This document shows, in pieces, positions 2 through 64,000 of a stretch of DNA of 64,000 nt. Under the pieces are notes generated by a model. It searched no databases. It was not told the DNA's origin and was given only the letters and a program-made list of their open reading frames with translations. The stretch lies in assembly GCA_934155645.1 (NCBI GenBank), contig CAKPHC010000005.1:75819-139818 (forward strand), read 5' to 3'. Both the position numbers and the translations under genes were made by a program. Every line of letters starts with the position of its first letter. Position 1 is the stretch's first letter. The stretch comes from an uncultured Bacilli bacterium (GTDB lineage Bacteria; Bacillota_I; Bacilli_A; RF39; UBA660).

Positions 2-904
2 AGTTATGAGTTTACTGATATAGCTGGTCTTGTTAAAGGGGCATCATTAGGAGAAGGTTTAGGTAATAAATTTTTATCTCATATTAGAGAAGTAGACGCA
101 ATAGTAGAAGTTGTTAGATGTTTTGACGATAATAACATAATACATGTTGAAAACACAGTTGACCCAATTAGGGATATAGAAATTATAAATTTGGAATTAA
201 TTCTATCTGACTTAGAAATTTTAACTAATAGAATTGATAAAATTAAAAAGAAAGCTGAAACTAACCGTGATAAAGAAGCGTTAGAAGAGTTGAATATTTT
301 AAAAAAAGCAAAAGATAATTTAGAAAAGAATATTCCATTACGTTTAATTGAATTTAGTGAAGAAGAAATGAATGTATTAAGTAGTTTTGCTTTCTTAACA
401 ATAAAACCTATGATTTATCTTGCTAATGTCTCTGAAGATGATGTAGCAAAAGAGGATAATGATTATGTGAAGAAAGTAAAAGAATATGCTTCTAAAGAGA
501 ATTCAAAAGTAATCAAAATGTGCGCAAAGTTAGAATCAGAATTAAGTGAATTGAACGACGATGATAAAAAAGAAATGCTAAATGCGGTAGGAATTGAAGA
601 AAGTGGACTTGATAAATTAATTAAGGAAACCTATGACCTTCTTGGTCTTGCAACATATTTCACCGTAGGTAGTGACGAAGTAAGAGCATGGACATTTAAA
701 AAGGGAATGAATGCTAAAAAATGTGCTGGAATAATCCACACTGATTTTGAAAAAGGATTTATCAAAGCTGAAGTTATGAGCTATGATGATTTGATAAAAT
801 ACGGAAGTGAACAAAAGGTAAAAGAAGCAGGACGTGCTCGACTTGAAGGAAAAGATTATATTATGCAAGATGGAGATATATGTTATTTTAGATTCAATGT
901 TTAA
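2..904 (+). CDS. ychF: ribosome-binding ATPase YchF (Obg-like GTPase family), C-terminal ~300 aa; 5' end lies outside the window
   Basis: Reading frame is open from position 2 (…EFTDIAGLVKGASLGEGLGNKFLSHIREVDAIVEVVRCF…), ahead of the first in-frame ATG at 191. Conserved YchF central region and TGS-like C-terminus (…FTVGSDEVRAWTF…GFIKAEVMSYDDL…). Confidence 0.85.
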   Translation, partial: SYEFTDIAGLVKGASLGEGLGNKFLSHIREVDAIVEVVRCFDDNNIIHVENTVDPIRDIEIINLELILSDLEILTNRIDKIKKKAETNRDKEALEELNILKKAKDNLEKNIPLRLIEFSEEEMNVLSSFAFLTIKPMIYLANVSEDDVAKEDNDYVKKVKEYASKENSKVIKMCAKLESELSELNDDDKKEMLNAVGIEESGLDKLIKETYDLLGLATYFTVGSDEVRAWTFKKGMNAKKCAGIIHTDFEKGFIKAEVMSYDDLIKYGSEQKVKEAGRARLEGKDYIMQDGDICYFRFNV

Positions 905-930
905 TATTAATTGATAAAGGAGAATTTGAT

Positions 931-1608
931 ATGAATCAGCCAAATCGAATTGAAATTAAAGAAAGAGCTAAAAAGCTTATAAAAGGGAATATTTGGAATC
1001 TATTAAAACCATGGTTAATAGCTTATGTAATAGAACTTGTGGTAGCTATCATAAATACATTTTTCTTTACTAAATCTGTAGCTTGCCCACTTGATATGCC
1101 ATTTGCAACGAGATGTACTGAAGCAACAGCTATGAGTACACTGGTTCAAATAGCATTGTCCCTTGCATCAATAGTATTTATCTTTGGTTTTATTAGATAT
1201 GTATTAAAATTTGCACGAGGCGAACAATATAGTGTTAAGGAAGATTTGTTTTATTACTTTAAAAATGATTTAGGTGTTGTATTATTAACAGGTATTTTAA
1301 CTTCAATTCTTATTACAGCGTGGTCACTACTTTTGGTTATACCTGGTATTATTGCAGCAATAAGTTACTCAATGGTATTTTACTTGAAAGTAGATACAGA
1401 TAAAACTGGTATGGATTTGATTGATGAAAGTAAAAAGATGATGCAAGGTCATAAGGCAGATTATTTTGTCTTTGTGCTAAGTTTCTTTGGATGGGCAATT
1501 TTAGGTGGACTTACCTTTGGATTAGCATATATTTATGTAATTCCATATATTAGTGTTTCACAAGCTTTATATTATGAAGAAATAAAAAAGATTAATAGTA
1601 ATAATTAA
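931..1608 (+). CDS. integral membrane protein, DUF975-like (multi-pass, unknown function)
   Basis: 225-aa ORF with RBS and several hydrophobic helices. Overall composition resembles the DUF975 membrane family. Confidence 0.45.
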   Translation: MNQPNRIEIKERAKKLIKGNIWNLLKPWLIAYVIELVVAIINTFFFTKSVACPLDMPFATRCTEATAMSTLVQIALSLASIVFIFGFIRYVLKFARGEQYSVKEDLFYYFKNDLGVVLLTGILTSILITAWSLLLVIPGIIAAISYSMVFYLKVDTDKTGMDLIDESKKMMQGHKADYFVFVLSFFGWAILGGLTFGLAYIYVIPYISVSQALYYEEIKKINSNN

Positions 1609-1634
1609 GGAACCAATTTGGTTCTTTTTTTTAT
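1609..1634 (+). terminator. rho-independent terminator (GGAACCAAATTGGTTCC + T8)
   Basis: Perfect hairpin AGGAACCAA/TTGGTTCT followed by a T-run directly after the stop codon. Confidence 0.7.
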
Positions 1635-1883
1635 AAAACTTTTGCATCCTATGAGTATGATAAGATGAGTAATCATTTATCCACTCTAAAGATAACAACA
1701 ATATATAATCTAATAAAATACATTTACCATGTTGAGATTTGGGACGAGGTGCATATTGGAAATAGAAATTGGTTGTCCGTTAAAGGTATCTTCATACTCA
1801 AACTTTAATATCATTTTCAGTGGTGATTCAAATTTTATCTTCGTTTTAAAAAGAAAAAAATCTCTTCTTTTTAGTTTCTCATA

Positions 1884-1918
1884 TTGACAAAAATGTCGGA
1901 AAAAGATATTATTAATTT
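1884..1918 (+). promoter_or_regulatory. sigma-A-type promoter for the surface-protein operon (TTGACA-17-TATTAT)
   Basis: ttgacaaaaatgtcggaaaaagatattat has a -35 TTGACA and a -10 TATTAT with 17-nt spacing, about 30 nt upstream of the RBS AGGAGGA of the 1942 ORF. Confidence 0.45.
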
Positions 1919-1941
1919 ATAAGATAATAGGAGGATAAGAA

Positions 1942-2784
1942 GTGAAAAAGAGTTTATTAAAGTTTTTAGTAGGAATTTTTGTATTTGCTATTGGAATAAC
2001 AGTTAATGCTGAAGGAACTACTAGTATACCAAATCTTGAAAATGGTGAAGGAAGTACAAATGGAACAGTATCTGTTGGTAGTGTAGAAACGCCTATATAC
2101 AATGTTAACATTTATTGGTCTGATTTATCATTTGACTGGACTTATGATAGTGATAGTGCTGATTATAGTTGGACACCTACTAAAATCTGTAGTCCTTATG
2201 AAGCTTCTAATGTTTCAGCTACTGGTAAAACTATTTATAGTGATAAAAATTGTACTGAAATAGCTAATAACGTCGGTGAAGAAAGTGGCACTCCAAAATA
2301 TTATTTAGATTCACGTGATTCTGTATTTTTTAATATTGAAGACTCTTCAGAACATGGTCAAATAGTTCCATCTGTTAAATGGAATGCTGCTAGTAATTAT
2401 AGTTATGTAGATGCGAAGTTTACAGTTTACGAAGATTTTTGTGTAGCTGTACCAAATGAAAACGTTTATGATGTAGCTGTTAATTATGGCATTTATTCAG
2501 ATTCCACTTGTGCTACAGAAACAACCCCTTCTGGATATGTAGAAAATAAGTATTATACTTTTGCACGTAAACCAGTCGTACTTACAACAGAAGAATTACC
2601 TGATTCCGTAAGAGTATCTGCTACTGGTGATAGTACAGAGATAGACGGATTAACTTTTGTTAAGCGTGATTATAGAAATAACTATAGAGTTGATTTTGTA
2701 CTTGTAAATAAATCTACACCAACTGCTACACCAACTGCTGGTGATCAAATTGGTACAATCACCGTTTCTGTTAGAGCTAAATAG
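1942..2784 (+). CDS. secreted protein (signal peptide, no anchor), unknown fold; paralogous N-terminal motif shared with 3428..3895
   Basis: GTG start with AGGAGGA RBS. Signal peptide MKKSLLKFLVGIFVFAIGITVNA. Motif VSVGSVETPIYNVNIYWSDLSFDWTYD is shared with the ORF at 3428. Thr/Pro-rich C-terminal segment. Confidence 0.6.
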   Translation: MKKSLLKFLVGIFVFAIGITVNAEGTTSIPNLENGEGSTNGTVSVGSVETPIYNVNIYWSDLSFDWTYDSDSADYSWTPTKICSPYEASNVSATGKTIYSDKNCTEIANNVGEESGTPKYYLDSRDSVFFNIEDSSEHGQIVPSVKWNAASNYSYVDAKFTVYEDFCVAVPNENVYDVAVNYGIYSDSTCATETTPSGYVENKYYTFARKPVVLTTEELPDSVRVSATGDSTEIDGLTFVKRDYRNNYRVDFVLVNKSTPTATPTAGDQIGTITVSVRAK

Positions 2785-2829
2785 TGTTTGAATTAAATTT
2801 GCTCATAAAGACAATTTATATTTGATAGT

Positions 2830-2860
2830 ATAAGGTGGATTTATGTCCACCTTATTTTTA
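2830..2860 (+). terminator. intra-operon stem-loop/attenuator (TAAGGTGGA-TTTATG-TCCACCTTA + T-run)
   Basis: Perfect 9-bp stem followed by TTTTTAT, between the first and second genes of the cluster. Confidence 0.55.
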
Positions 2861-2872
2861 TAGGAGGGTTGT

Positions 2873-3418
2873 ATGAAAAAAGAAAATAATGACAAAAAAC
2901 GAAAAGAAGGGAAAAAAGCTAAAGTAATATATATTTTTTTGATTTTATTGATTATTTTATGTAGTGTCTTAATAGTTTGCCTTCTTCGAAAAGAAGAAAA
3001 GACTTTAATACCTGATTATGCTCCTGGTACAATTGATGTTAATGCTATTAAAGAACAAGATAATGGTAAGAAGATGGATGTGTCTAATGGTGGAGGAGCC
3101 GTAAGTATCTCTTATTCTAATATCGTTGAAGTTAATAACAAAAATAAGAAAATAAAGATGTATTTTAAGAATCCCAGTTCTTCTAGAGAATCAATTATTT
3201 TAGAATTATTAATTATTAATGGAGAAAAAGAATATTTAATTGGAAAGACAGACTTATTACCACCGGGGTATGCTTTATATAATATGAATCTAGATACCGA
3301 TGTTAAGTTACCAAAAGGAGGATATAAAGGTATATTTAGAACAACTTATTACAGTGAGGAAACTGGGGAAAAAGAAATTGTTAATTCAGAAATAGAAATA
3401 TCAATCGAGGTTAAATAG
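2873..3418 (+). CDS. type-II membrane-anchored protein (Lys-rich N-tail, one TM, ~140-aa extracytoplasmic domain); paralog of 3905..4384
   Basis: MKKENNDKKRKEGKKAK, then the hydrophobic helix VIYIFLILLIILCSVLIVCLL, then a beta-rich domain. The motif pattern (…IG.T.L…G…VKL..G.Y.G…) is shared with the 3905 ORF. Confidence 0.55.
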   Translation: MKKENNDKKRKEGKKAKVIYIFLILLIILCSVLIVCLLRKEEKTLIPDYAPGTIDVNAIKEQDNGKKMDVSNGGGAVSISYSNIVEVNNKNKKIKMYFKNPSSSRESIILELLIINGEKEYLIGKTDLLPPGYALYNMNLDTDVKLPKGGYKGIFRTTYYSEETGEKEIVNSEIEISIEVK

Positions 3419-3427
3419 GAGTTTTGT

Positions 3428-3895
3428 ATGAAAAGAAAAATTTTTGTTATTTCTTTAATAATATTTAGCTGTTTATTTGTAGATGTTTATGCCTTAAAGG
3501 AAGATGAATCAACATCCGCAAGTGTTAAAGTTGGTAATGTTGATGCTCCTATTTATAGCGTCGATGTAACATGGGGAAAAATGGAATTTACATATACAGA
3601 ACAAATTAATTATGTATGGGATGATATTAATCATACATATGATTTGGGAGAATCAACATATAGGTGGGCTGCTAAAGACAATTATGTTGATGTTAATAAT
3701 CATTCGTATGATGCCATTAGTGTTGAACTAGAATATGTTAGTTTAGAAGAAAGTGTGGACGGAGTTTTTAATATATCTAAGACAACAATAGATAGTAGAT
3801 CTAATAATCGTTTTACTTTAACTTTAGAAGGAAGATTAAAAGATTCTGGTTTAGAATATATTAAAGTTTGTTCTATTAATTTAAAATTATCGTAG
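3428..3895 (+). CDS. small secreted protein, paralog of the N-terminal domain of 1942..2784
   Basis: Signal peptide MKRKIFVISLIIFSCLFVDVYA. VKVGNVDAPIYSVDVTWGKMEFTYTE aligns with the 1942 ORF. Only 9-nt spacing from the upstream gene. Confidence 0.55.
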   Translation: MKRKIFVISLIIFSCLFVDVYALKEDESTSASVKVGNVDAPIYSVDVTWGKMEFTYTEQINYVWDDINHTYDLGESTYRWAAKDNYVDVNNHSYDAISVELEYVSLEESVDGVFNISKTTIDSRSNNRFTLTLEGRLKDSGLEYIKVCSINLKLS

Positions 3896-3904
3896 GGGGA
3901 ATTT

Positions 3905-4384
3905 ATGAAAAATAATAAGTTATTGATAATACTTTGTACTATATTAGTTTTTTTTATAGGAATTATATGTTTTTTAATAATTGATATAAAAAATAAAGAA
4001 ACTTTTAAAAAGATTGATTTTGATAAAAATACTTTAGTTGAAATTCCCGATAATATTGTATATGAAAATTCAGTTTTGAATATTGTAGAAGGGTATTCGA
4101 TATATATTAGTCCTTCTCCTAAAATTGTTAAAGATAACTATTTAAAAATAGATTTTATATCTCTTGATACTAATGATATATGGATAAAAGTCAGAATATT
4201 AGATGAAAAAGATAGTATTATAGGCGAAACTGGTTTAGTAAAAGCAGGTGAATACTTAGAAAAAGTTAAAGTAACAAGAAATGTTAAAGTTGGTGATAAG
4301 ATTACATATAAAATAATGGGATATGAAATCGATAGTTATTTAAGTGCGGGTTCAGTTAGTTTGAATACAAGGATTGGTGAGTAA
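3905..4384 (+). CDS. type-II membrane-anchored protein, paralog of 2873..3418
   Basis: N-terminal TM LLIILCTILVFFIGIICFLII, then an extracytoplasmic beta-rich domain. Stop overlaps the next start (TAATG). Confidence 0.55.
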   Translation: MKNNKLLIILCTILVFFIGIICFLIIDIKNKETFKKIDFDKNTLVEIPDNIVYENSVLNIVEGYSIYISPSPKIVKDNYLKIDFISLDTNDIWIKVRILDEKDSIIGETGLVKAGEYLEKVKVTRNVKVGDKITYKIMGYEIDSYLSAGSVSLNTRIGE

Positions 4385-5229
4385 TGGAAAAGAAGTTGTT
4401 TTTAATAGCAATTTTATGTTTGTGTTTAATTAACTGTAAAGTTAATGCACAAAGTAAAGATATCGAGGCTAAATATGAAACTAGTTATAATGTAGAGTTG
4501 GTTTCTGTTCATCTGAATAATAATTCCAAATATTTCGTGATAGACAATTATGAGTTTGAAGTATCAACAACTACCAATAACATAGAAATAGTTATTATTA
4601 GAGCTAGTGGAGATGCTAGCAATTATGCTAAGAAATTTTCTGGTAGTAATGATAATTATTATTTAATAATCTATCAAAACGGTGAAAAAATTAATACAAG
4701 TAATGTTAGTATAAAGATTAATTCTACATCTAAAGTACTTAATGTATATAAAAATAATGGTAAACTCTTAGAAAAATCAAACGAAAAAATTAGTTTAACT
4801 GCTAATGATTATTTTTTTGTAATCACTGATACTATTGATATTGGTGAAAATAATTATGTAGTTACTGATAATGGCAATAGAGTTGATAATGTTGATGATA
4901 TTGAAATTAGTGATGACAGTGTTATAGAAATATATAATTCTAAAGATATTAAAGTAGATAATACAAGTGTTTTAGGCACTAACTATAAAGTAATTATTAC
5001 AACGGGAACAGAAGTCAAAAAATATGTAATTATCGTTAAAGGTGATACTACTGGTGATGGTAAAATAAACTTAAATGATATAACTAGACTTTACCATTAT
5101 TATAAGGGAATAGAACTAATGGATGAATGTTATGTTTTAGCAGGTGATGTTGCAAGAAATCAAATTATTAACTTAAACGATGTTACAAAATTATATCATT
5201 ATTATAAAAATATAATTACTAGTTTATAG
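4384..5229 (+). CDS. secreted dockerin-domain protein (signal peptide, beta-rich domain, C-terminal type-I dockerin)
   Basis: Signal peptide MEKKLFLIAILCLCLINCKVNA. The C-terminus has two F-hand-like repeats, DTTGDGKINLNDITRLYHYY and DVARNQIINLNDVTKLYHYY. Ca-ligand positions 1, 5, 9 and 12 are conserved. Confidence 0.65.
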   Translation: MEKKLFLIAILCLCLINCKVNAQSKDIEAKYETSYNVELVSVHLNNNSKYFVIDNYEFEVSTTTNNIEIVIIRASGDASNYAKKFSGSNDNYYLIIYQNGEKINTSNVSIKINSTSKVLNVYKNNGKLLEKSNEKISLTANDYFFVITDTIDIGENNYVVTDNGNRVDNVDDIEISDDSVIEIYNSKDIKVDNTSVLGTNYKVIITTGTEVKKYVIIVKGDTTGDGKINLNDITRLYHYYKGIELMDECYVLAGDVARNQIINLNDVTKLYHYYKNIITSL

Positions 5230-5237
5230 GTGATGGT

Positions 5238-7400
5238 ATGAAGAAATTTTTATTGTTGGTAATTGGTATTATTTTAATGCCTTCATGTGTATTCGCTTCT
5301 GATAATAGTGTTTATATTGGTTGTGAAGGAATTAAATATAAAACTAATGACGAAATAAAGTGCAATATTTATGTTGACGTTGATTTTATAGTAACCAGTG
5401 TATCGGGTAAAATATTATTAGATGATAATTTAGAATTAGTAAGTTCTTCATATGATAATGATAATTGGCTAATGTTAGATGAAAATTTTAGTGTAGAAAG
5501 TATAAACTTAATCAGTGAAAATAAAAAAGAAAGAGATAATTTTATTATTGCATCTTTTGTTATTAAAGCAATTAATAAAGAAGACATTAGTGCCTCTAAA
5601 ATATCTTTTGATGATGTTGTACTTGGTGATGAAAACTACGAAGAACATGAAATAGTTGCAGATAGTTTTGATTTGAATTTAGAGTATAAAAGCAATAATA
5701 ATATATTCGTAGTTTTATTATTTGCCTTTTTAGTTATGGTAGTAATTTATTTAGTAAATAAAGAAGATAATAAAAATAAGAAAAATAAAGTAGGAATTAT
5801 TATATTAGTATTATTTTTATTTTTGATACCAGACTGTGTCTTAGCAAGTAATGATATTAATATTAGTTGTGATAAAACAAAACTTAATAGTAATGAAGAA
5901 ACAAGTTGTAGTTTATCAGTTAGTAATTTAGATTTTGTACCGACTGATATAGCAGGAACGGCTAAAGTTGGTAATTATTTATCAATAGTTAGTTCATCAT
6001 ATGATAAAAGTAATTGGACATCTTTTGATTCTAATTTTAGTGTTAGTGATATTAACTTGATACGTCAAAGCAAAGACAAAGTTAGTAGTTTTACAATAGC
6101 TACTTTTAGGGTTAAAGCTAGTAGTGGTGCTGTTGGTAGCAGTACAATTAGTTTTAATAATATAGTTATGGGTGATGATAATTATAATAGTGTTTCTTTA
6201 GGAAATAAATCTATTAATGTTAGTTTTAATTCCAGCAATAATTATTTGAACTCTTTAATTGTAAGTGAAGGAAATGTTGATTTTTCAAAAGATAAGACGA
6301 ACTATTCCTTGACAGTGGATAGTGATAGTATTGTTGTTAGTGCTACAGCAGCAGATAGCAAAGCTAAGATTAGTGGTACTGGTAAAATAAATTTATTATA
6401 TGGAGAAAATATAATTAATGTAGTTGTAACAGCAGAAGATGGTAGTAAAAAAACATATACATTAAGAATTACTAGAAAAGATAATCGTAGTACCAATAAT
6501 TATTTAAAGAGTTTATCATTGTCTTGTGGTAATTTAAATTTTAATAAGAATATTAATAACTATAATATAGAAGTTGATGGTGATATTAGCAAAGTTATTA
6601 TTACAGCTAGTCTAGAAGATTCTAAAGCTAAGTTTGTTAATAGTTTTGGACCTAGAAGTGTTAATTTAAATTATGGAACAAATAAGATTTTAATTAAAGT
6701 ATTAAGTGAAAACGAAATAGAAAAAGTTTATACCTTAAATATAACAAGAAAAGATAATCGTAGTAGTGATACATCTTTAAAAAGCATTACTATTAGTTCT
6801 GGTAAGATAAATTTTAATAAAGATAAGTTATCATATAATGTTAATGTAAATAATAATATTAAAAAGATTAAAATTACAGCAGAAGCAAATAATTCAAAAA
6901 GTTTAGTCGAAATAGAAGGAAGCCAACAATTAGAAGTTGGAGAAAATATTTTTATAATTAAAGTAATCGCAGAAAACGGAAACATACAAGAATACAAAAT
7001 AGTTGTTAATCGCGAAAAGAAAATCACTATTACTGACAATAATAAATTAACTAATATAGAAATCAAAAATCATGAAATAAATTTTTCTAGTAATTTATAT
7101 GAATATACTGTGAAAACAAAAAATTCTAAGCTAGATATCATAGTAACACTTGCTTCAGAAGAATCAACATATGTGATAAACGGCAATGATAATTTAGAAG
7201 ACGGAAGTATTATTTCAATAGTTGTTACTGATAAAGATGATAATCATAATATTTATAAGATTTATATAGAAAAAATTCATGAAATAAATATATATTTAAT
7301 ATTATTTATAATTTCACTAGTATTAAATATTTTATTAATTTTAGTAATAATTTATTTATTGATTAAGAGAAACAAAAAAAATAAGATTGGGAAAGAATAG
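5238..7400 (+). CDS. membrane-anchored scaffoldin-like surface protein: signal peptide, cohesin-like domain 1, TM-loop-TM hairpin, cohesin-like domain 2, 4 cadherin-like beta-sandwich repeats, C-terminal TM anchor
   Basis: Domain signatures:
- Both N-terminal domains fit the cohesin pattern (…DFIVTSVSGKILLDDNLELVSSSYD…FIIASFVIKA…ISFDDVVLGDENY and …DFVPTDIAGTAKVGNYLSIVSSSYD…FTIATFRVKAS…ISFNNIVMGDDNY).
- Four ~85-aa repeats match the Cadherin-like beta-sandwich (PF12733) pattern (NYL.SL.vS.G.l.F…Y.v.V…v.vtA….a…G…L..GeN.i.i.V.aEdG…Y.l.itR).
- C-terminal TM plus a KRNKKNK tail. Confidence 0.65.
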   Translation: MKKFLLLVIGIILMPSCVFASDNSVYIGCEGIKYKTNDEIKCNIYVDVDFIVTSVSGKILLDDNLELVSSSYDNDNWLMLDENFSVESINLISENKKERDNFIIASFVIKAINKEDISASKISFDDVVLGDENYEEHEIVADSFDLNLEYKSNNNIFVVLLFAFLVMVVIYLVNKEDNKNKKNKVGIIILVLFLFLIPDCVLASNDINISCDKTKLNSNEETSCSLSVSNLDFVPTDIAGTAKVGNYLSIVSSSYDKSNWTSFDSNFSVSDINLIRQSKDKVSSFTIATFRVKASSGAVGSSTISFNNIVMGDDNYNSVSLGNKSINVSFNSSNNYLNSLIVSEGNVDFSKDKTNYSLTVDSDSIVVSATAADSKAKISGTGKINLLYGENIINVVVTAEDGSKKTYTLRITRKDNRSTNNYLKSLSLSCGNLNFNKNINNYNIEVDGDISKVIITASLEDSKAKFVNSFGPRSVNLNYGTNKILIKVLSENEIEKVYTLNITRKDNRSSDTSLKSITISSGKINFNKDKLSYNVNVNNNIKKIKITAEANNSKSLVEIEGSQQLEVGENIFIIKVIAENGNIQEYKIVVNREKKITITDNNKLTNIEIKNHEINFSSNLYEYTVKTKNSKLDIIVTLASEESTYVINGNDNLEDGSIISIVVTDKDDNHNIYKIYIEKIHEINIYLILFIISLVLNILLILVIIYLLIKRNKKNKIGKE
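6231..7275 (+). repeat. four tandem ~255-270-bp coding repeats (cadherin-like domain units) inside the scaffoldin gene
   Basis: Repeat boundaries are marked by the recurring DNA strings agaaaagataatcgtagta (6471, 6741) and the protein motif ITRKDNRS. Confidence 0.6.
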
Positions 7401-7423
7401 ACAAATCTATTTTTTTTTATATA

Positions 7424-7460
7424 AAAATACCCCTAACTTTAATGTTAAAGGTATTAATAA
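7424..7460. terminator. bidirectional terminator between convergent genes
   Basis: AATACCCCTAAC…GTTAAAGGTATT imperfect hairpin in an AT-rich context, flanked by T-runs on both strands. Confidence 0.4.
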
Positions 7461-7465
7461 ATTAA

Positions 7466-8134
7466 TTATTTAAACTGAGCAGCGTTGTTATTTAAGACAG
7501 TTTCTTGAGAATGCATTTGATAATTTTGAATATCATTTAATTGATGAACACTATTTACAACTGCTTGTTGCTCATCGAGTGTTGTTTTTGCAACTGTTCT
7601 CAATGAGTGGTTTAAAAATAAATCCACTTCTTCAGATAATGAAGAATAGGTAGCACCGTTTTTATATCTAAATTGTTTTTCCTCTGCTACACCATACTTA
7701 TCATAAATTTTATTACCCAACTCATTAATTGTTCTTTTAGTAAAATCTCCAAAATAACTAGATTTTTTACCATCTTTTAATTCTTCTATTAGATTATCTA
7801 CCATTTGATATTTATTTCTTGCCACATCACCAATATCAGGGCGAAGATTTCCTTCACTACTGACAAGTTCATCTAAAACAACTTCGGTAGCTTTATCAAA
7901 AACATCGGCATATCGAATAGCACCATATTCGTAATTTTTCTTTAAAATTGGAATAATTTCTTTAGGTGATAGTTCATAACCCTCTCTTTTAGTTATTTTG
8001 CATATTGTAAAACTCAAATCTTCCAATTCGTTCATACGACGCATATTATCAGGGTTAATTTCCCTTTTCATAGATTCATCTAAAGCTCTATATGAATCAG
8101 TATAACTTCTTAATACTTGTAATTCTTCATCCAT
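7466..8134 (-). CDS. hypothetical cytoplasmic protein (no recognisable family)
   Basis: ORF with a good RBS (GGAGG, 9 nt) at Met14 of the six-frame ORF (MDEELQVL…). No TM segments or motifs recognised. Confidence 0.45.
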   Translation of the reverse strand: MDEELQVLRSYTDSYRALDESMKREINPDNMRRMNELEDLSFTICKITKREGYELSPKEIIPILKKNYEYGAIRYADVFDKATEVVLDELVSSEGNLRPDIGDVARNKYQMVDNLIEELKDGKKSSYFGDFTKRTINELGNKIYDKYGVAEEKQFRYKNGATYSSLSEEVDLFLNHSLRTVAKTTLDEQQAVVNSVHQLNDIQNYQMHSQETVLNNNAAQFK

Positions 8135-8289
8135 AATAATGCGCCTCCTATTGCCATTATAAATTTTAATCAATTAAAAATCAATGTAATAACTAAAAAA
8201 AGGTAAGACATTTACATTAATCAATTTAAATTTTACTCTTATTTTTAAGAGAAACAGTAAGATAAATATTAAAAAAACTTATAGACAAA

Positions 8290-8383
8290 ATAAAATATAT
8301 TTGTTATACTACTTGCGAGTATTTAGGTACTCCTTGCTTCATTCTCGTAATGAGGCCATAAGTCCAAGAGGAGGTGTAGAAAA
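8290..8383 (+). promoter_or_regulatory. rpsF promoter (extended -10 TGtTATACT) plus a structured ~75-nt leader (possible S6:S18-binding autoregulatory leader)
   Basis: tttgTTATACT motif. The leader contains hairpins (TCATT-CTCGT-AATGA) before the RBS GAGGAGG. Confidence 0.35.
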
Positions 8384-8671
8384 ATGAATAAATATGAAAT
8401 TATGTTCATTGTAAAACCAGATCTAGAAGAATCTAATATTAAAGCTGTAGTTGATTCAATGAAAAAAGTTGTTGAAGCTGAAGGGGCTAAAATATTAGAA
8501 ATAAAAGAAATGGGTCAAAGAGAACTTGCTTACGAAATCAATAAATACAAAATGGGATATTATTTCTTATTCGTAATTGAGTCAGATCATAGCACAGTTA
8601 AAGAATTTGATCGTGTTGCATTAATCAATGAAAATATCATTCGTCATTTAATCGTTAAAGTTGATGAATAA
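8384..8671 (+). CDS. rpsF: 30S ribosomal protein S6
   Basis: 95 aa, MNKYEIMFIVKPDLEE…, in the canonical rpsF-ssb-rpsR context. Confidence 0.9.
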   Translation: MNKYEIMFIVKPDLEESNIKAVVDSMKKVVEAEGAKILEIKEMGQRELAYEINKYKMGYYFLFVIESDHSTVKEFDRVALINENIIRHLIVKVDE

Positions 8672-37559: not shown

Positions 37560-37719
37560 TAATTAGTGATATATAATACAAATTGATTTGCAAGTGCCAT
37601 AGACAGTAGGTGTTAAAATAAATCCTACCGAGGACTTAACTTTAGTTATAAAAGCCCTTTGTCTATGTATAAAGAGCTTTTATTTATGGCATTTTTAAAT
37701 ATTATGAGGAGGTGCTATA
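37560..37719 (+). promoter_or_regulatory. rplJ promoter and L10(L12)4-binding leader (L10 leader-like)
   Basis: TATAAT at ~37571, then a ~140-nt structured leader before RBS GAGGAGG. Position matches the Firmicutes L10 leader. Confidence 0.45.
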
Positions 37720-49653: not shown

Positions 49654-52600
49654 ATGAATAAATATAAATTATTTTTAGAAAATTGCAATGTCATAGAAAG
49701 ATATTACAATTATTTGATTTCACTTACAAACAATCATAATTTTGTAGGTTCAACTAATGAGTGGATTATTGATAATTACTATATGGTTGCTGAAATAAAG
49801 GTTAATCTTAAAAAAAATCTAAAAGAAAATAAAAGATTAAAAGAAGTAATAAATCGTTCTGAGAACCAAGTTTATGATTTATTAAACAAAGCATGTTACA
49901 GTAAAAACTTTAATATTAGTTATGAAGATGTACTTAATGAAATTAAAGAATATCAAAACGTTGAGGAAAACTATCTTACTTACAATGAATTAGAAAGTAT
50001 TCCGGTTGCTTTATCTTTTATAATCATTGATAGGCTAGCAACACTTTGTAAGACAAAAAAGGAAAGTCAAACTGAAAAACAAAAGATAAGAGAATTGGTT
50101 AAATCATTGGGTGATAAAATTCATAATGGTGAAGTAATTAACTTAAGTGATTACATAACCTTTGATAAAGAAATAGGTGAGCATCCAGAAATTATAGAAC
50201 AACTGAATGATAGTTTAACTGAACTAGGAACCTCTTCAAATGAACTTTTTATTCAATTGGATAAGATGCTAGAAGAATACGATTTAAATTTGAAGGATTT
50301 AATAAATAAAGAACATATCGACAGTATTAAAAATAATATATTGATTGCAAACCTTTTTAATACACTTAGAACAATTTTAAAAATAGATGTTATTGATATA
50401 TTTGATAAATTAAGTAAAACTGAAAAAGTCCTTAAACAAGATTCATACTATAAAAGCATGACTAGCGAAACTAAAGGATTATATCGTAATTTAATTACTA
50501 AGAATTCTAAACATACAACTGAATACAAATATGCATGTTCTTTATTAGAAAAAAGCAGTATTAATGATACACATATTGGTTTTTACTTAATGAAACGATG
50601 TAATTATTCACTAAGAAGTAAACTATATATCATTTTCATTATAATATTTACATTGATAATCAGTGGATTACTATCACTAATCACACTAGATTACTGGTGG
50701 TTGTCGTTTATTTTATTATTAGTTCCAATAAGTGAAGTGGTAATACAATTATTAAACAAAATATTATTAAAAGTGTATCCCTGTCAACCATTACCAAAGA
50801 TTGATTTTTCAAAAGGTATAGATAAGAATAATGCGACGATGGTTGTTATTCCTACAATCGTAAAAGATAAAGCCAAAATAGATAATATGTTTCAATTATT
50901 AGAAAAATATTATCTAGCTAATAAATCAAATAATTTATATTTTACTTTATTAGGAGATTGTTCTGAATCTACAACTGAGAAAACAGCATTTGATGAAGAA
51001 ATATCAAATTATGGAATTAAAAAATCAGAAGAATTAAATGACAAGTATAACGCTAAACTTTTCTCTTTTGTTTACAGACGTCGAGTATTTAATCCTGGTG
51101 AAAATAAATTTTTAGGATATGAACGAAAAAGAGGAGCATTAATCCATTTCAACAAACTATTATTAGGTGAACTATCACTTAGTGAATATGAAAAATACAT
51201 ATATAAAGAGAATGTATGTGATATTAAAAGTGATATAAAATATGTTATAACAATAGATACCGATACCGAATTAGTCTTAAATACAGCTTTATCACTAGTT
51301 GGTACTATGGCACATCCTTTAAACAAACCAGTTTTAAATGAAAAAGGTACTAAGGTTATTGCCGGTTACGGAATAATTCAACCAAGAGTAAACGTTGATA
51401 TTGAGTCGACAAATAAATCAATATATTCACAATTAATGGCAGGAATAGGAGGATTTGATGTATATTCAACTATTGTTCCTAACTTTTATCAAGATGTATT
51501 TGGTGAAGGAAGTTTTGTTGGTAAAGGAATATATGATTTAAAAATATTTGATACAATACTATCTAATGCCTTTCCAGAAAATTTAATTTTAAGTCATGAC
51601 TTGTTAGAAGGCAATTATTTAAGATGTGGTTATGCATCAGATATTGAAGTAATAGATGATTTCCCATCCGAATTCTTAGTTGAAGCATCACGTCAACATC
51701 GTTGGACCAGGGGAGACGTGCAAATATCTGGTTGGTTAAAAAGAAAAGTAAAAGATAAAAAGGGTAGCAAAGTAAGCAACCCACTAAATTTAATAGAGAA
51801 ATTCAAAATATTTGATAATATTCGTAGAATTATGATAAATCCATGTATGCTTTTATTATTAATATTATCATTTATATGTGGAAGCTCATTTTGGACATTT
51901 ATCACAGTAATGATGATTATATCTTGGCCTATGCTTTTCTATCTTAAAGAATTGTTACATCGCCAAAATAGAAAACTATTTACTTTCAAATACTACAACA
52001 AATTAATGTTTGGTTTCTTTAGTATTTTGTATCGTATTTTAATAACATTTATTACTATTCCGTATTATAGTTATTTATACTTAGATGCATTTATAAGAGC
52101 CAATTATCGTATGCATATAAGTCATAAGAGACTATTGAATTGGTTAACAGCAGAAGATGCTGCTAAGACATTAAAGAAAGATTTGATAAGTTATATTAAA
52201 CAATTTTGGATGAACTATGTTACATCAGCCATTTTAATCATAACTTCCCTTATAGTTAGTCCTAAAACATCGTTTATAGCTCTAATAATATCAATTGGAT
52301 TTGTATCTGCACCTTTTATATTATGGAGCTTTAGCAAGAGAAAAGATATAGTTTTAATAGGTTTAAATGAACGTCAAAATAAAAGAATAAAGGATATGGC
52401 ATATCGTACATGGCTTTACTTTGAAGCATTTTTAAAAGAAGAAAACAATTATTTAATACCAGATAATTATCAATTAAATAGAGAAAATAAAGAAGATACT
52501 AAAACATCACCTACTGACATAGGTATGTCGATTACTTCTGTAATATCAGCAAGTGAACTAAACTTCATTGATGTTAAACATGCCCTATTTCTATTAAACA

Positions 52601-55600
52601 AAATTATCACTACTTTAGAAAAGTTAGAAAAATGGAATGGTCATTTATACAATTGGTACAATATTAAAACTTTGAATAAAATCGTTCCATATGTTGTATC
52701 TTCAGTTGATAGTGGTAATTTAGCCGCTTCATTAGTGGTAGCAAAAGAATATGCTTTAAAACATAACGATATTGATTTACATAATCGTATAAGTAATATG
52801 TTTGATGCTATGAACTTTAGCAAATTATATACTAAACAAGGTGTATTTAGTATTGCTTATAATACTACCGATGAAGAGTTATCAGTTTACAACTATAATA
52901 AATTCGCAAGTGAAAGTAGAATACTAAGCTTTGTAGCCATTATGAAGGGTGATGCACCAAGTAAGCATTGGCTTTGTTTAGATAAAACTCTTACAAAATA
53001 TAAAAAACATAAAGGTGTAGTATCATGGTCAGGAACATCATTTGAATACTTTATGCCATTAATATTTATGAAAACTTATCCTAATACATTGTTAGATGAA
53101 AGTTACTTCTTTGCCAAATTCTGCCAAAAAGAATATATGTCAGAAATAGATATGAGGATGCCATGGGGAATTTCAGAGTCAGCTTATGATGAATTAGATG
53201 ATGGATTAAATTATAAATATAAGGCTTTTGCAACTCCATACTTAAAAGTAATAGACGAAAAAGAAAATCGTCTAGTAATATCACCTTATGCATCTATTCT
53301 AGCAATCACTACCGACCCAATTGATGTGTATTTCAACTTGAAAAAGTTTAAAAAACTAAATATGTATGGTGAATATGGTTTCTACGAATCATACGACTAC
53401 ACAACAAGTAATCGTGTACTAGCATACTATGCACATCATCAAGGAATGATTTTAGCATCAATGACTAATTATTTAAAAAATAATGTAATTCAAGAGTATT
53501 TTCATTCCGATTTACGTACTCAAGCATTTGAAATCCTTTTAAAAGAAAAGGTTCAACTAAATCCAGTTATCGACATGAAAGTTGTTGGATACAAAAAATA
53601 TGATTACGAAAGAGAAAAAATTGCTAATGATATAAGAGAGTATAATTACATATCTGATATACCTCAATTATCTGTTTTATCTAATTCAAATTATACTTTA
53701 TTACTTAATGATCGAGGTAATGGATTCAGTAGATATAATACAACTCAATTAAATAGATACAGAAAAATAACAAAACAAAGTTATGGCACATATTTATATA
53801 TAAAAGATTTAAATAACAGTAAAATATGGTCAAATACTTTTGCACCAACTAATGTAAAACCGGATAAATACAATGTTGTATTTGCAACTGATAGAATCAA
53901 ATTTTTAAGAGTAGATGGTGGTATAGTAACTCAAAGTGAAATAATAGTTACTAAGGAACAACCAGCCGAAATAAGAAAAATAACGTTTAAAAATAATTCA
54001 TCAGAAACTAAGAAGTTAGAATTGACCACTTATACTGAAGTAATACTAGAAGAAAATATTGATGATATTACTCATCGTACCTTCAGAAATTTGTTTGTAA
54101 GTAGTAAATATGATTCTGAAAATGACGCGCTTATTTTATGTAGAAGAAACAATACTAAAAACCGTTCAAACTATATAGTTGGTAAATTATTAGTTCCAGG
54201 TATGAAAACTTCAATATCGTACGAAACCGAAAGAGATAAATTTATAGGTAGAGGACATAATGTATATGACCCGATTGCCCTTAACAGCAAATTGAGTAAT
54301 GAAACAGGAACTAATCTAGATTCTATATTATCTCTTAGAACAACAATAGAGTTATCACCTAAAGAAGAAAAAATCGTTTATTACGTGCAAGGATTTAGTA
54401 AGTCACTCGAAGGAATCAATGAAATACTAAAAGAATACTCTACGCCATCAAAAATAGAAAATAGTTTTGAATATACTACTTTGGCTAATAACATGAAGAT
54501 AAAACTTTTAGGATTAGATGGAAATAATATAAGAATTTACAATATTATGCTAAATTATCTATATCAAACTAGTAGGCACTTTGTTAATGATGAAAGAAAA
54601 ATACTACTTGCTCAAAACTCTTTAAATCAAAGTGGTTTATGGAAATTTGGTATTAGTGGTGATAGACCAATAATTTTAGTAGATATTCATAGTGGTAAAG
54701 CATTCAGATTAGCTAAAGATGCTATCAGAGCGTTCGAATATTTTAAAAGTATGGGGATATACATTGATTTAGTAATTATTAATAGTGAAACAGAAGAATA
54801 TAAACGAATCATAAAAAAAGAAGTTGAGCAAGAAATCTATCGAATGAATAAATTATTTGACTTTGGATATACTCCTGGTTCTGTTCATTTACTTGATGCA
54901 TCTGATTTAGAAAATAGCGAATTAGTTTTATTAAACATGGTAGCAAGATTAGTTTTTAACTCTTCAAATAATTCTTCATTAGAGGAAATGGTAAACAAAA
55001 TGCATCTCGAAAACAAAATGGTAGCGTTTTCAGATATTATTCGTGAAGATGTTACTGATTTTGAAGTAGATACAACTAAAATAGCAAGTTTTAATGGATA
55101 TGGAGGTTTCATAAAAGGTGGTAAGGAGTACATAATAACTAATCAAGATACTCCTACTCCGTGGTCTAATGTTATTGCAAACAAAAACTTTGGAACGATT
55201 TTAACCAATAATAGTTGTGGATTTACTTATTCATACAACAGTCAGATGTTTAAATTAACATCATGGACTAATGATATAGTAGTTAATGATAAGTCAGAAG
55301 GTATTTTAGTCAATGAAAAAGAGGTTCAAGTATCAATATGTAGACACGGTTTTGGATACTCAACATTTGAACAAGATGGTAAAGATTATAATTTAACAAC
55401 AACTCAGTTTGTAGCAAAGGAGGATTCAGCTAAGTTTTATCAAAACAAAATAACTAATATAAGTAATACTAAACAAAAATACAAATTAACTTTCTGGATT
55501 AATCCAACTCTAGGACCAAACGAAGAAAAGTCTAGCCGTTATTTACTATCCGAATATCATAAAGAATTCAATGCAATTGTAATTAGAAATGTTTATAATA

Positions 55601-60465: not shown

Positions 60466-62039
<1,574 letters not shown>

Positions 62040-62250
62040 AAGGAGTATAATTCCTTACCTAGCTAAATGACAGTTTTGCTTAGTTTTGAGAGATCGTATC
62101 TCTCAATGAAATAGTTCTTTGAAAACTAGATAATGTGAGTTCAATCTTTTTCATAACGAGCGAAAAAGATTGATGTATAATTATTTCTTTAATTTTTAAT
62201 AATTATTAAGATCTCATCAAATTAGGATATAACAATATCAAACAAATGGT

Positions 62251-64000
<1,750 letters not shown>

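Follow-up and report, generated by a model that had tools for sequence, protein, structure and literature searches.

In C. perfringens, the cohesin and dockerin modules of the glycoside-hydrolase toxins (PDB 2w1n, 2jh2, 2vo8, 2o4e) are appended to large secreted GH84/GH33 enzymes, and these modules are the top structural matches of a module of p6, the membrane-anchored scaffold of the gene cassette described here. The toxins and the cassette have in common a low-GC Firmicute host and the use of cohesin-dockerin modules outside cellulose degradation. However, the carriers in the cassette are small and non-enzymatic, and its putative cohesins are TM-anchored, contain an invariant C-x12-C motif and are missed by the Pfam Cohesin model (PF00963). 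The anchoring and adaptor scaffoldins of C. thermocellum, A. cellulolyticus and R. flavefaciens (PDB 5nrk, 3l8q, 5n5p, 4fl4) likewise combine cell-surface cohesins with dockerin-bearing partners. Cellulosomal scaffoldins possess an SLH anchor, whereas the cassette employs a TM helix or, in homologues, an NPxT[GS]-type signal. Also unlike cellulosomes, the cassette is devoid of GH or CBM cargo and has a Cadherin-like stalk and four extra uncharacterised co-inherited proteins.

Two reduced or specialised systems are also comparable. ClcC/ClcD of Cellulosilyticum lentocellum is a minimal adjacent cohesin/dockerin pair that enhances cellulase activity (PMC13487519). It resembles the cassette as a highly reduced system in which a single dockerin gene adjoins the cohesin gene, but the cassette is tethered to the membrane and lacks any catalytic domain. 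The Ruminococcus bromii amylosome organises GH13 amylases (PMC4611034), and its Amy16 dockerin (PDB 9qf9) is the second-best profile match of the p5 dockerin. Like the cassette, it represents the use of cohesin-dockerin modules by a gut Firmicute for a non-cellulose purpose, although the cassette encodes no enzymes. The Csc/WxL clusters of lactobacilli and enterococci are compact Bacilli operons that encode extracytoplasmic proteins only, which are believed to assemble into a surface complex. They are not known to contain a cohesin or dockerin. The cassette is similarly compact and all-extracytoplasmic, but p1 to p6 have no WxL, DUF916 or LPXTG match.

We propose, with a probability of about 65%, that this cassette of uncultured gut Bacilli builds a non-enzymatic cohesin-dockerin complex on the external side of the cytoplasmic membrane. 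An earlier note, made from the sequence alone, had read the locus as a non-cellulosomal, membrane-tethered cohesin-dockerin scaffold, and the dockerin match, the predicted fold and comparative genomics lend support to that reading. The six same-strand genes, which the note had taken to encode exported proteins throughout, each encode an N-terminal hydrophobic segment for export or anchoring. Their features within the window (the whole 64-kb stretch of DNA analysed) are as follows.

1884..1912, plus strand: sigma-70-like promoter sequence TTGACA-17-TATTAT, with p1 starting 30 nt downstream; a consensus match alone
1942..2784, plus strand: p1, 280 aa, secreted, four conserved Cys
2830..2862, plus strand: p1-p2 hairpin, AAGGTGGA-loop-TCCACCTT plus T-run; conserved, cassette-specific
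2873..3418, plus strand: p2, 181 aa, signal-anchored, with N-terminal basic stretch, TM and ectodomain of about 120 aa
3428..3895, plus strand: p3, 155 aa, secreted; minimal-core paralogue of p1
3905..4384, plus strand: p4, 159 aa, signal-anchored, beta-rich ectodomain
4384..5229, plus strand: p5, 281 aa, secreted, dockerin-bearing
4855..5031, plus strand: p5 small beta-module with LGTxYK motif, strands at aa 158-218; travels with the dockerin in other architectures
5032..5226, plus strand: p5 dockerin, two 22-residue F-hand repeats at aa 221-242 and 255-276
5238..7400, plus strand: p6, 720 aa, membrane-anchored scaffold
5298..5702, plus strand: cohesin-like module 1, p6a part, membrane-proximal, C-x12-C
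5703..5846, plus strand: TM hairpin, consisting of ex-p6a anchor (aa 156-172), basic loop KEDNKNKKNK and ex-p6b signal peptide (aa 187-203)
5847..6236, plus strand: cohesin-like module 2, p6b part, distal, C-x12-C; the module modelled
6237..7274, plus strand: stalk of four Cadherin-like (PF12733) repeats, Pfam E 1.2e-32 over 4 stretches
7299..7397, plus strand: C-terminal TM anchor (hydrophobic segment aa 688-704) and basic cytoplasmic tail KRNKKNKIGKE
7426..7455, no strand assigned: terminator-like hairpin between p6 and a convergent gene

The convergent gene lies on the minus strand and encodes 235 aa. The promoter match, which agrees with 11 of 12 consensus positions, is the top-scoring site in 1500-8500, and upstream of it a terminator-like hairpin at 1607-1627 closes a DUF975 gene. 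The p1-p2 spacing is 88 nt, and the intergenic distances downstream of that junction are +9, +9, -1 and +8 nt. The stem of the p1-p2 hairpin recurs at the p1-p2 junction in L084/85, L086, L088, L089 (as a variant), L090 and L091; the window contains no other copy, with 0 expected by chance, it was not found in 85 other loci, and the hairpin does not match an Rfam family. It is probably a partial intrinsic terminator or attenuator, and because this conserved hairpin is positioned 3' of p1, p1 is probably made in excess. The GC3 of the cassette genes (0.117-0.187) is inside the range of the neighbouring genes (0.097-0.189), and the composition is therefore native-like, as previously described. 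The cassette itself, however, is accessory: it sits in a variable ychF-rpsF hotspot, and its chromosomal location differs among relatives. Neither the cassette nor its immediate surroundings encode a glycoside hydrolase, an SLH domain, a sortase or a sorting signal, in agreement with the earlier observation.

The comparison with related genomes that had been proposed reveals that the cassette is kept together as one unit. It is found at eight loci with invariant gene order and with flanks that differ at seven or more of them, the relatives being uncultured gut Bacilli. The gene for the p5 dockerin is immediately upstream of the cohesin-like gene or genes at all eight. What had been described as a six-gene operon does contain six ORFs here, but the ancestral cassette has seven genes and the six-gene form is a derived state, because the last two genes (p6a and p6b) have fused. 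In other cassettes p6a and p6b are separate genes, p6 being encoded as two genes at five of the eight loci. The two N-terminal modules of p6 are 39% identical to each other (E 1e-33), and since the internal duplication takes in the signal peptide, p6 derives from two fused genes. Four hydrophobic segments are present (aa 4-20, 156-172, 187-203 and 688-704). The C-terminal TM and basic tail had been correctly recognised as an anchor, but the internal TM hairpin and the fusion had been overlooked. The ex-p6b signal peptide keeps a V-x-A cleavage-type motif, and p6 may be cleaved there.

The four Cadherin-like repeats of p6 start at about aa 334, 420, 511 and 601 and are just as had been claimed; the identity of the two preceding modules as cohesins is a more qualified matter. 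An AF2 model of module 2, built on a two-sequence alignment (pLDDT 78, pTM 0.72), supports a cohesin fold: of the 25 Foldseek matches at E<=1e-3, 23 are cohesins, headed by 2w1n and 2jh2 (E 1e-5, TM 0.70), and lower-ranked matches include other beta-sandwiches such as the CLIPPER domain, BslA and RbmA. In contrast, p6 does not match Pfam Cohesin at E<=1, and the Pfam cut-off is reached by 0 of 56 full-length and 0 of 53 domain sequences of the p6-module family, although PF00963 is the commonest weak Pfam match across that family. Searched against PDB, the family profile retrieves three R. flavefaciens cohesins at the top, aligned in register, the PDB cohesin matches having E values of 0.1-1; by hhalign the same profile has no significant match to a bona fide cohesin encoded at locus L058. 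The HMM check that had been suggested thus succeeded for PF12733 on p6 and for the isolated dockerin of p5 but failed for Cohesin, and with no significant match to the Cohesin HMM, half of the HMM outcome that the earlier note had named as speaking against its own reading did occur. The C-x12-C motif is in both modules, as had been noticed, and the invariance of its two Cys in 53 family members is what suggests a disulfide.

The secreted p5 protein consists of a signal peptide, a beta-sandwich domain (aa ~39-149), the small beta-module (aa ~158-218) and the dockerin. Residues 219-272 match Pfam Dockerin_1 (PF00404) over the full model length (E 6e-4), and all 26 p5 orthologues match Dockerin_1, with the L002 orthologue giving no match when the whole protein is scanned. 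Scanned in isolation, the C-terminal 70 aa of p5 reach 23.3 bits and pass the Pfam cut-off (22.9 bits), which the whole protein, at 20.4 bits, does not. The repeats are identical at 13 of 22 residues, and in loop 2 an Ala occupies ligand position 3, which lacks a side-chain ligand. PDB dockerins are retrieved by a p5 profile search; there is also a weak match to EF-hand_7. The dockerin fold is predicted with moderate confidence (pLDDT 52-79), and Foldseek with the whole p5 model returned no match. The p5 C-terminus is a genuine but divergent, type-I-like dockerin, not the textbook example first described, although the two 22-residue repeats were correctly identified. The beta-module that travels with it is reminiscent of the X-Doc dyads of cellulosomes.

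The remaining four proteins have no relatives detectable in Pfam, NCBIfam or PDB sequences, and they lack a dockerin, which counts against the cohesin-dockerin reading. The orthologues of p1, the fastest-evolving component, are 29-52% identical across cassettes, and L084, L086 and L090 each carry p1 in duplicate; p2 is the most conserved component (58-76%). Two pairs of paralogues had been proposed. That of p1 and p3 is supported by hhalign with signal peptides removed (96.1%, E 2.9e-9) and by a joint alignment, the two having a conserved N-terminal beta-motif and core in common, whereas p2 and p4 have one weakly similar motif only (56%, E 1e-4, 38 columns), and their paralogy is weak.

The analysis establishes which domains are present, the topology signals, the fusion that gave p6, the conservation of the cassette and the joint occurrence of the two domain families; what we infer is cohesin-dockerin binding, its stoichiometry and its biological role. 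p6 would offer two divergent cohesin modules, ex-p6a beside the membrane and ex-p6b topping a stalk that consists of four Cadherin-like domains and is held by the C-terminal TM helix. Secreted p5 would dock its C-terminal beta-module and dockerin into one or both p6 cohesins in a Ca2+-dependent manner, and so display its N-terminal beta-sandwich domain. Both dockerin repeats have the same residues at their predicted contacts, positions 10/11 (L-N) and 17/18 (Y-H), and a dual binding mode is therefore expected. That the cassette has one dockerin for two cohesin types counts against a cohesin-dockerin reading. The Cys-rich, fast-evolving and sometimes duplicated p1 would be a probably over-produced component, and p3, p2 and p4, as obligatory co-inherited partners, may assemble with or onto the p6/p5 scaffold.

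The same domain families also occur outside the cassette. P0051, P0054 and P0057 each combine a cohesin-like module and a p5-type dockerin in a single polypeptide, and the beta-module plus dockerin unit of p5 is 32-38% identical in these three and in the L094 protease. Three adjacent proteins at L094, which parallel the cellulosomal enzyme/adaptor/anchor hierarchy, are a 1760-aa Peptidase_C1 enzyme with a C-terminal p5-type dockerin, a Coh-Cadherin-Doc adaptor and a Coh-Cadherin-TM anchor. Together with the fixed position of the p5 gene at the eight loci, these proteins support a functional link between the two families. P0054 links NlpC/P60-like and repeat regions to the cohesin-like/dockerin modules. 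L094 and P0054 also favour a different, rather unlikely reading, that the p6 cohesins are an open recruitment platform for several dockerin proteins (enzymes, for example proteases or glycosidases) encoded elsewhere, with p5 as one client or adaptor. Against this, the window holds one dockerin and one cohesin protein, with no second of either, and the strict-order co-inheritance with five non-enzymatic partners at eight loci is better accommodated by a closed, self-contained complex.

It is unlikely that the locus instead encodes a surface fibre in which p1 (major) and p3 (minor or base) polymerise through the N-terminal motif they have in common, with p2 and p4 assisting assembly at the membrane and p5 and p6 doing no more than attaching the polymer to the cell. 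The motif and core common to p1 and p3 would suit such a fibre, as would the hairpin after p1 with the excess synthesis it suggests, the variability and duplication of p1, often seen in exposed major subunits, and the membrane anchoring of p2 and p4, which are the most conserved components. However, the cassette proteins have no similarity to pilin, TasA, Ena or sortase systems, no sortase or sorting signal was found in the window, and polymerisation of p1 and p3 is purely conjectural. Coincidental resemblance, with p6 modules that are generic Ig-/jelly-roll adhesin domains, a p5 tail that is an EF-hand-like Ca2+ module, for example a stabilising one, and genes for independent surface proteins that form no complex, is quite unlikely: the Pfam Cohesin and hhalign failures, the EF-hand_7 match and the non-cohesin sandwiches would fit, but cohesins dominate the fold matches, strict synteny and fusions involve exactly these two domain families, and the relative L058 encodes a canonical cohesin (Pfam E 9.5e-11, SP-Coh-Cadherin-like-TM architecture) at the equivalent ychF-rpsF site.

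The likely role of a closed cohesin-dockerin complex of this kind would be adhesion or the capture of a ligand, possibly a glycan, at the cell surface. If the p6 cohesins are open to dockerin proteins encoded elsewhere, the cassette would represent not an adhesin but a small 'non-cellulosomal cellulosome' that serves to acquire nutrients.

We favor, with a probability of about 0.65, a reading in which the six adjacent genes p1-p6 encode a self-contained, enzyme-free surface complex. The cohesin-like scaffold p6 would present one membrane-proximal cohesin and one on a stalk, p5 would attach to p6 via a symmetric dockerin, p1-p4 would co-assemble by joining the p5-p6 complex, and the whole would serve adhesion or ligand capture. 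An earlier note had placed six same-strand genes for exported proteins at 1942-7400, tightly packed after the first, and all of this holds. The six ORFs are on the + strand at exactly these coordinates, the p1-p2 gap of 88 nt is followed by junctions of, in order, +9, +9, -1 and +8 nt, and an N-terminal hydrophobic segment is found in six of six products. The features of the cassette are:

1884-1912, + strand, promoter-like site TTGACA-17-TATTAT, the best promoter-like match of the region, just 5' of p1
1942-2784, + strand, p1, ORF of 280 aa
2830-2862, hairpin AAGGTGGA-loop-TCCACCTT plus T-run at the p1-p2 junction
2873-3418, + strand, p2, ORF of 181 aa
3428-3895, + strand, p3, ORF of 155 aa
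3905-4384, + strand, p4, ORF of 159 aa
4384-5229, + strand, p5, ORF of 281 aa
5238-7400, + strand, p6, ORF of 720 aa
7426-7455, closing hairpin between p6 and a convergent 235-aa gene

The promoter-like site is placed 3' of the terminator that ends the upstream DUF975 gene. Cleavable-looking signal peptides are present in p1 (VNA/E), p3 (VYA/L), p5 (VNA/Q) and p6 (VFA/S), and the N-termini of p2 and p4 resemble signal anchors. The convergent 235-aa gene (7466-8173, - strand) has neither a hydrophobic segment nor a family match and is exclusive to the window's version of the locus, the other cassettes having no such member.

The cassette is conserved as a unit. It is found entire at eight loci with invariant gene order, the comparison proposed in the earlier note, and at least seven of the eight have different flanks, which at the other loci include mutL/miaA, gyrA/rpsU and TspO/LemA. 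Across cassettes, identity with the window's proteins is 58-76% for p2, 51-66% for p4, 47-64% for p5, 40-59% for p3 and 29-52% for p1, which is duplicated in three loci. Relatives of YchF (70-92% identity) were used for taxonomy and synteny; they belong to MAGs of uncultured gut bacteria labeled "Bacilli", "Tenericutes" or "Mollicutes" and sampled from humans, mice, rabbits, zoo animals and ruminants, the named ones including Clostridium sp. CAG:762, Ca. Faecimonas and Ca. Coprovivens, the last two classed by NCBI in Bacilli incertae sedis. The ychF-rpsF distance is 7483 bp in the window (904-8384) versus 121 bp in the nearest relative (92% YchF). Among the other relatives (loci L004-L083) its length varies between 114 bp and 7.3 kb; several, like the nearest, have just 114-121 bp, and others have unrelated cargo, comprising metabolic genes, membrane proteins and, in L058, a canonical cohesin protein. 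Because the length and cargo of this interval vary among relatives, the cassette occupies a variable hotspot. The native, nonforeign composition proposed earlier agrees with a GC3 similar to that of the neighboring genes, yet the cassette sits in this hotspot. No integrase or repeat signature of a phage or mobile-element origin lies beside the cassette in the window, and a recombinase is encoded within 8 kb of it in one of the eight loci. The parAB-type genes encoded upstream in one related locus (L001) suggest that the window may be near the replication origin. Elsewhere, the window carries an L10 leader (37579-37693) and an rRNA operon (60466-64000; 16S at 60466-62037, 23S from 62251 past the window end).

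The p5 protein had been described as bearing a textbook type I dockerin; the dockerin identity stands, and "textbook" has to be dropped. Residues 219-272 of p5 align with the entire Dockerin_1 model (Pfam PF00404). With the whole protein as query the score is 20.4 bits (E 6e-4), below the gathering cut-off of 22.9 bits, and the C-terminal 70 aa scanned alone score 23.3 bits, above it. Dockerin_1 is the first match for 26 of 26 orthologous p5 tails (best E 6e-6), and membership of PF00404 is borderline but consistent. When p5 was compared with the PDB by phmmer, dockerins alone ranked above parvalbumins, the best match being C. thermocellum Xyn10B (2ccl_B, E 1e-3); dockerins also make up 14 of the 16 PDB matches of the family profile. 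The family consists of ~80 clusters, all of about 277-284 aa. The type I dockerin is defined by two tandem F-hand segments of ~22 residues, each a Ca2+ loop (ligands 1, 3, 5, 9, 12) followed by a helix, and both are recognizable in p5 from sequence and predicted helices. The repeats at aa 221-242 and 255-276 have 13 of 22 residues in common, with positions 10/11 (L-N) and 17/18 (Y-H) the same in both, and the AF2 model (50-sequence alignment, mean pLDDT 77.8) contains helices at 230-240 and 264-274, each preceded by a low-confidence loop. Loop 1 is D-T-D-N-D and loop 2 is D-A-N-N-D, in which the Ala at ligand position 3 is non-liganding. The p5 dockerin is genuine but divergent. Likeness of the p5 N-terminal domain is limited to accessory sandwiches of glycoside hydrolases (GHs).

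No GH or CBM family is present in p1-p6, and the cassette contains neither the dockerin-borne GH nor the CBM-bearing scaffoldin of a cellulosome or amylosome. The absence of nearby glycoside hydrolases was correctly stated before: the sole GH in the window is a dockerin-less, unrelated 2564-aa protein 42 kb from the cassette (49654-57348, + strand). It has GH94 catalytic, supersandwich and glucoamylase-like domains (Pfam E 4e-103, 4.5e-87 and 9.5e-20), in which it is similar to enzymes of the cyclic beta-1,2-glucan synthase type. It is possible, if unlikely, that p6 serves as an open platform for dockerin-bearing enzymes whose genes lie elsewhere. Three adjacent genes at L094 2709-10778 (GCA_045652225.1) form an enzyme, adaptor and anchor hierarchy: a 1760-aa Peptidase_C1/Big_2 protein with a p5-type dockerin at its C-terminus (2.6e-14), an SP-cohesin-Cadherin-dockerin protein and an SP-cohesin-Cadherin-TM protein. 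This trio follows the classical enzyme/adaptor/anchoring-scaffoldin logic; it is built from the p6-type cohesin-like and p5-type dockerin families and lacks p1-p4.

In the enzyme-free complex that we prefer, the partners would be p1-p4, which had been described as two pairs of paralogs. This is true of p1 and p3 (hhalign without signal peptides 96.1%, E 2.9e-9), which have in common the N-terminal motif V-x-V-G-x-V-x-x-P-x-Y-x-V-x-x-x-W-x-x-x-x-F and also agree at a central W and in the final strand of the joint alignment, p1 having two Cys-containing insertions relative to p3. The p2/p4 pairing is weak, consisting of a single weakly similar 38-column stretch (56%, E 1e-4). No relatives of p1-p4 were detected in Pfam, NCBIfam or PDB sequences: PDB-sequence profile searches with each of the four gave no matches, a Pfam scan of 19 p1/p3 family members at E<=10 gave no recurring family, and WxL (PF13731) and DUF916/DUF3324 are absent from p1-p4, and from the 19 members even at E<=10. 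Weak Pfam/NCBIfam matches of p2/p4 to DUF6568, DUF4252 and LMxysn_1693 are absent in the orthologs of locus L002 and were discarded as noise. Comparison of p1/p3, p2, p4 and the p5 N-domain with the cohesin-like modules and with each other was negative beyond signal peptides.

The p1-p2 hairpin is nearly invariant and is found in seven of the eight cassettes, though p1 itself is so poorly conserved. The L086 copy has one G-U pair and that of L089 a changed stem; other copies are at L084 8456-8480, L088 6475-6497, L090 6490-6512 and L091 3130-3151. It has no Rfam match and occurs neither in the rest of the window nor in 85 other related loci. The p1-p2 gap is 53-124 nt in all cassettes and the remaining junctions are 0-15 nt. 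In our reading, the hairpin would act as an attenuator or partial terminator and so give a high ratio of p1 to p2-p6. Its 5' arm looks like a Shine-Dalgarno sequence. A new surface fiber made of p1 and p3 is a more doubtful alternative than the open platform. It would be a sortase-independent Gram-positive gut appendage, in itself just as improbable, in which p1 (major) and p3 (minor), of new fold, would polymerize via the N-terminal motif, p2 and p4 would be membrane assembly factors, the cohesin-dockerin joint of p5 on p6 would fasten the fiber to the cell and the attenuator hairpin would set the stoichiometry.

From its N-terminus, p6 consists of a signal peptide, module 1 (aa 21-155), a TM helix (156-172), a basic loop, a signal-peptide-like TM helix (187-203), module 2 (204-333), four Cadherin-like repeats, a TM helix (688-704) and a basic tail. 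The two modules, signal peptides included, are 39% identical (E 1e-33), and the four PF12733 repeats previously proposed were recovered as four stretches (E 1.2e-32, 112.6 bits versus a cut-off of 24.2). The cohesin pattern ascribed to the two modules is upheld by the predicted fold and not by the Pfam Cohesin model (PF00963), with which the proposed HMM search gave zero matches to p6 at E<=1, the modules remaining below the gathering score. None of 56 full-length homologs matched PF00963 at E<=0.01; Cadherin-like repeats are present in 29 of the 56. Cohesin is nevertheless the commonest weak Pfam match at E<=10 (4 of 53 family domains, best E 0.019). The family, 65 representatives, came from an exhaustive profile search, which was required, a word-indexed search with module 2 alone having found no relatives; a scan of 185,579 species genomes with the p6 alignment also found none. 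Its three best PDB profile matches are R. flavefaciens cohesins, in register at the domain start with E-values of only 0.1-1, and hhalign against one bona fide cohesin, that of L058, the sole canonical one among the fetched loci, was not significant.

Predicted structure supports the cohesin reading of the modules more clearly than the weak evidence of sequence does. The modeling proposed for the putative cohesins yielded an all-beta AF2 model of module 2 (two-sequence alignment, pLDDT 78, pTM 0.72), predicted as a nine-strand flattened beta-sandwich (jelly roll). Cohesins of types I, II and III and noncellulosomal cohesins account for 23 of its 25 Foldseek matches at E<=1e-3 (TM 0.54-0.71), headed by the noncellulosomal C. 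perfringens structures 2w1n and 2jh2 (E 1e-5, TM 0.70). The C-x12-C pair is invariant in 53 of 53 family members, and a disulfide between its cysteines is plausible. Three distant members of the family, P0051, P0054 and P0057, terminate in a p5-type beta-module-plus-dockerin unit (local hmmsearch 6e-20, 2e-18 and 4.5e-16) with 32-38% identity to p5 aa 158-281. Because of these fusions, the L094 trio and the strict adjacency of the two genes in all cassettes, the p6 modules are putative functional dockerin receptors, the three together being the strongest argument available. A coincidental resemblance to the cohesin fold, to which the unsuccessful PF00963 searches would point and the Foldseek matches and dockerin fusions would not, is the least probable alternative.

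At five of the eight cassette loci p6 is represented by two separate genes, p6a (~190-204 aa, SP-cohesin-anchor, frequently with NPxT[GS] ahead of the TM helix) and p6b (~450-545 aa, SP-cohesin-Cadherin-like-TM). The L058 protein from the ychF-rpsF site joins a Pfam cohesin (E 9.5e-11) to three Cadherin-like repeats and a TM anchor, as the p6b half is built. The fused form is kept in the window, L002, P0007 and L091. At 5703-5846 the old stop/start junction is today an in-frame TM hairpin. Its second helix is the old signal peptide, and because this retains a V-x-A cleavage-type motif (3 of 3 fused orthologs), fused p6 may still be cut into two proteins after export. In stand-alone p6a-type proteins the C-terminus is often an NPxT[GS] motif with a hydrophobic stretch and basic residues after it (NPxT[GS]-TM-KK), as in P0008, P0010, P0013, P0015, P0021, P0040, P0062, P0063 and P0071 and the genes at L084 10853-11467 and L086 3974-4546, and this tail resembles a sortase-B-type sorting signal. 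The motif has been lost from the window's fused p6. Among the window's real ORFs a regex search found neither a sortase motif (TLxTC) nor a sorting signal, and Pfam found no SLH module in p1-p6, in line with the absence of sortase, LPXTG and SLH noted earlier.

Noncellulosomal modules are described as widespread in the review of Peer et al. 2009, as cited in PMC6487960. The closest known systems include the C. perfringens noncellulosomal cohesin-dockerin modules, cellulosomal anchoring and adaptor scaffoldins, the minimal pair ClcC/ClcD of C. lentocellum (PMC13487519) and the R. bromii amylosome (PMC4611034). In contrast to all of these, the window's cohesin family is Pfam-invisible and has an invariant Cys pair, it is anchored through a Cadherin-like stalk with a TM helix, its cassette has no enzyme cargo, a cassette-specific RNA hairpin is present and four unknown partner families are strictly co-inherited.

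Cohesin-dockerin pairs outside cellulosomes are known mostly as orphan modules of unknown purpose. Here the pair belongs to a cassette that is self-contained, free of enzymes and strictly conserved, which provides a defined, testable partner set, including, in p1-p4, four co-inherited families without detectable database relatives. Since the cohesin family, in which the invariant C-x12-C usually precedes Cadherin-like repeats, is missed by the Pfam model, HMM-based surveys undercount cohesins in gut Bacillota. The small membrane-anchored cohesin and symmetric dockerin could double as an orthogonal display pair. The host lineage is one of uncultured gut Bacilli known from MAGs only (humans, rodents, rabbits, ruminants), in which a conserved yet relocating surface complex is a plausible determinant of attachment to the host, to food particles or to other microbes.
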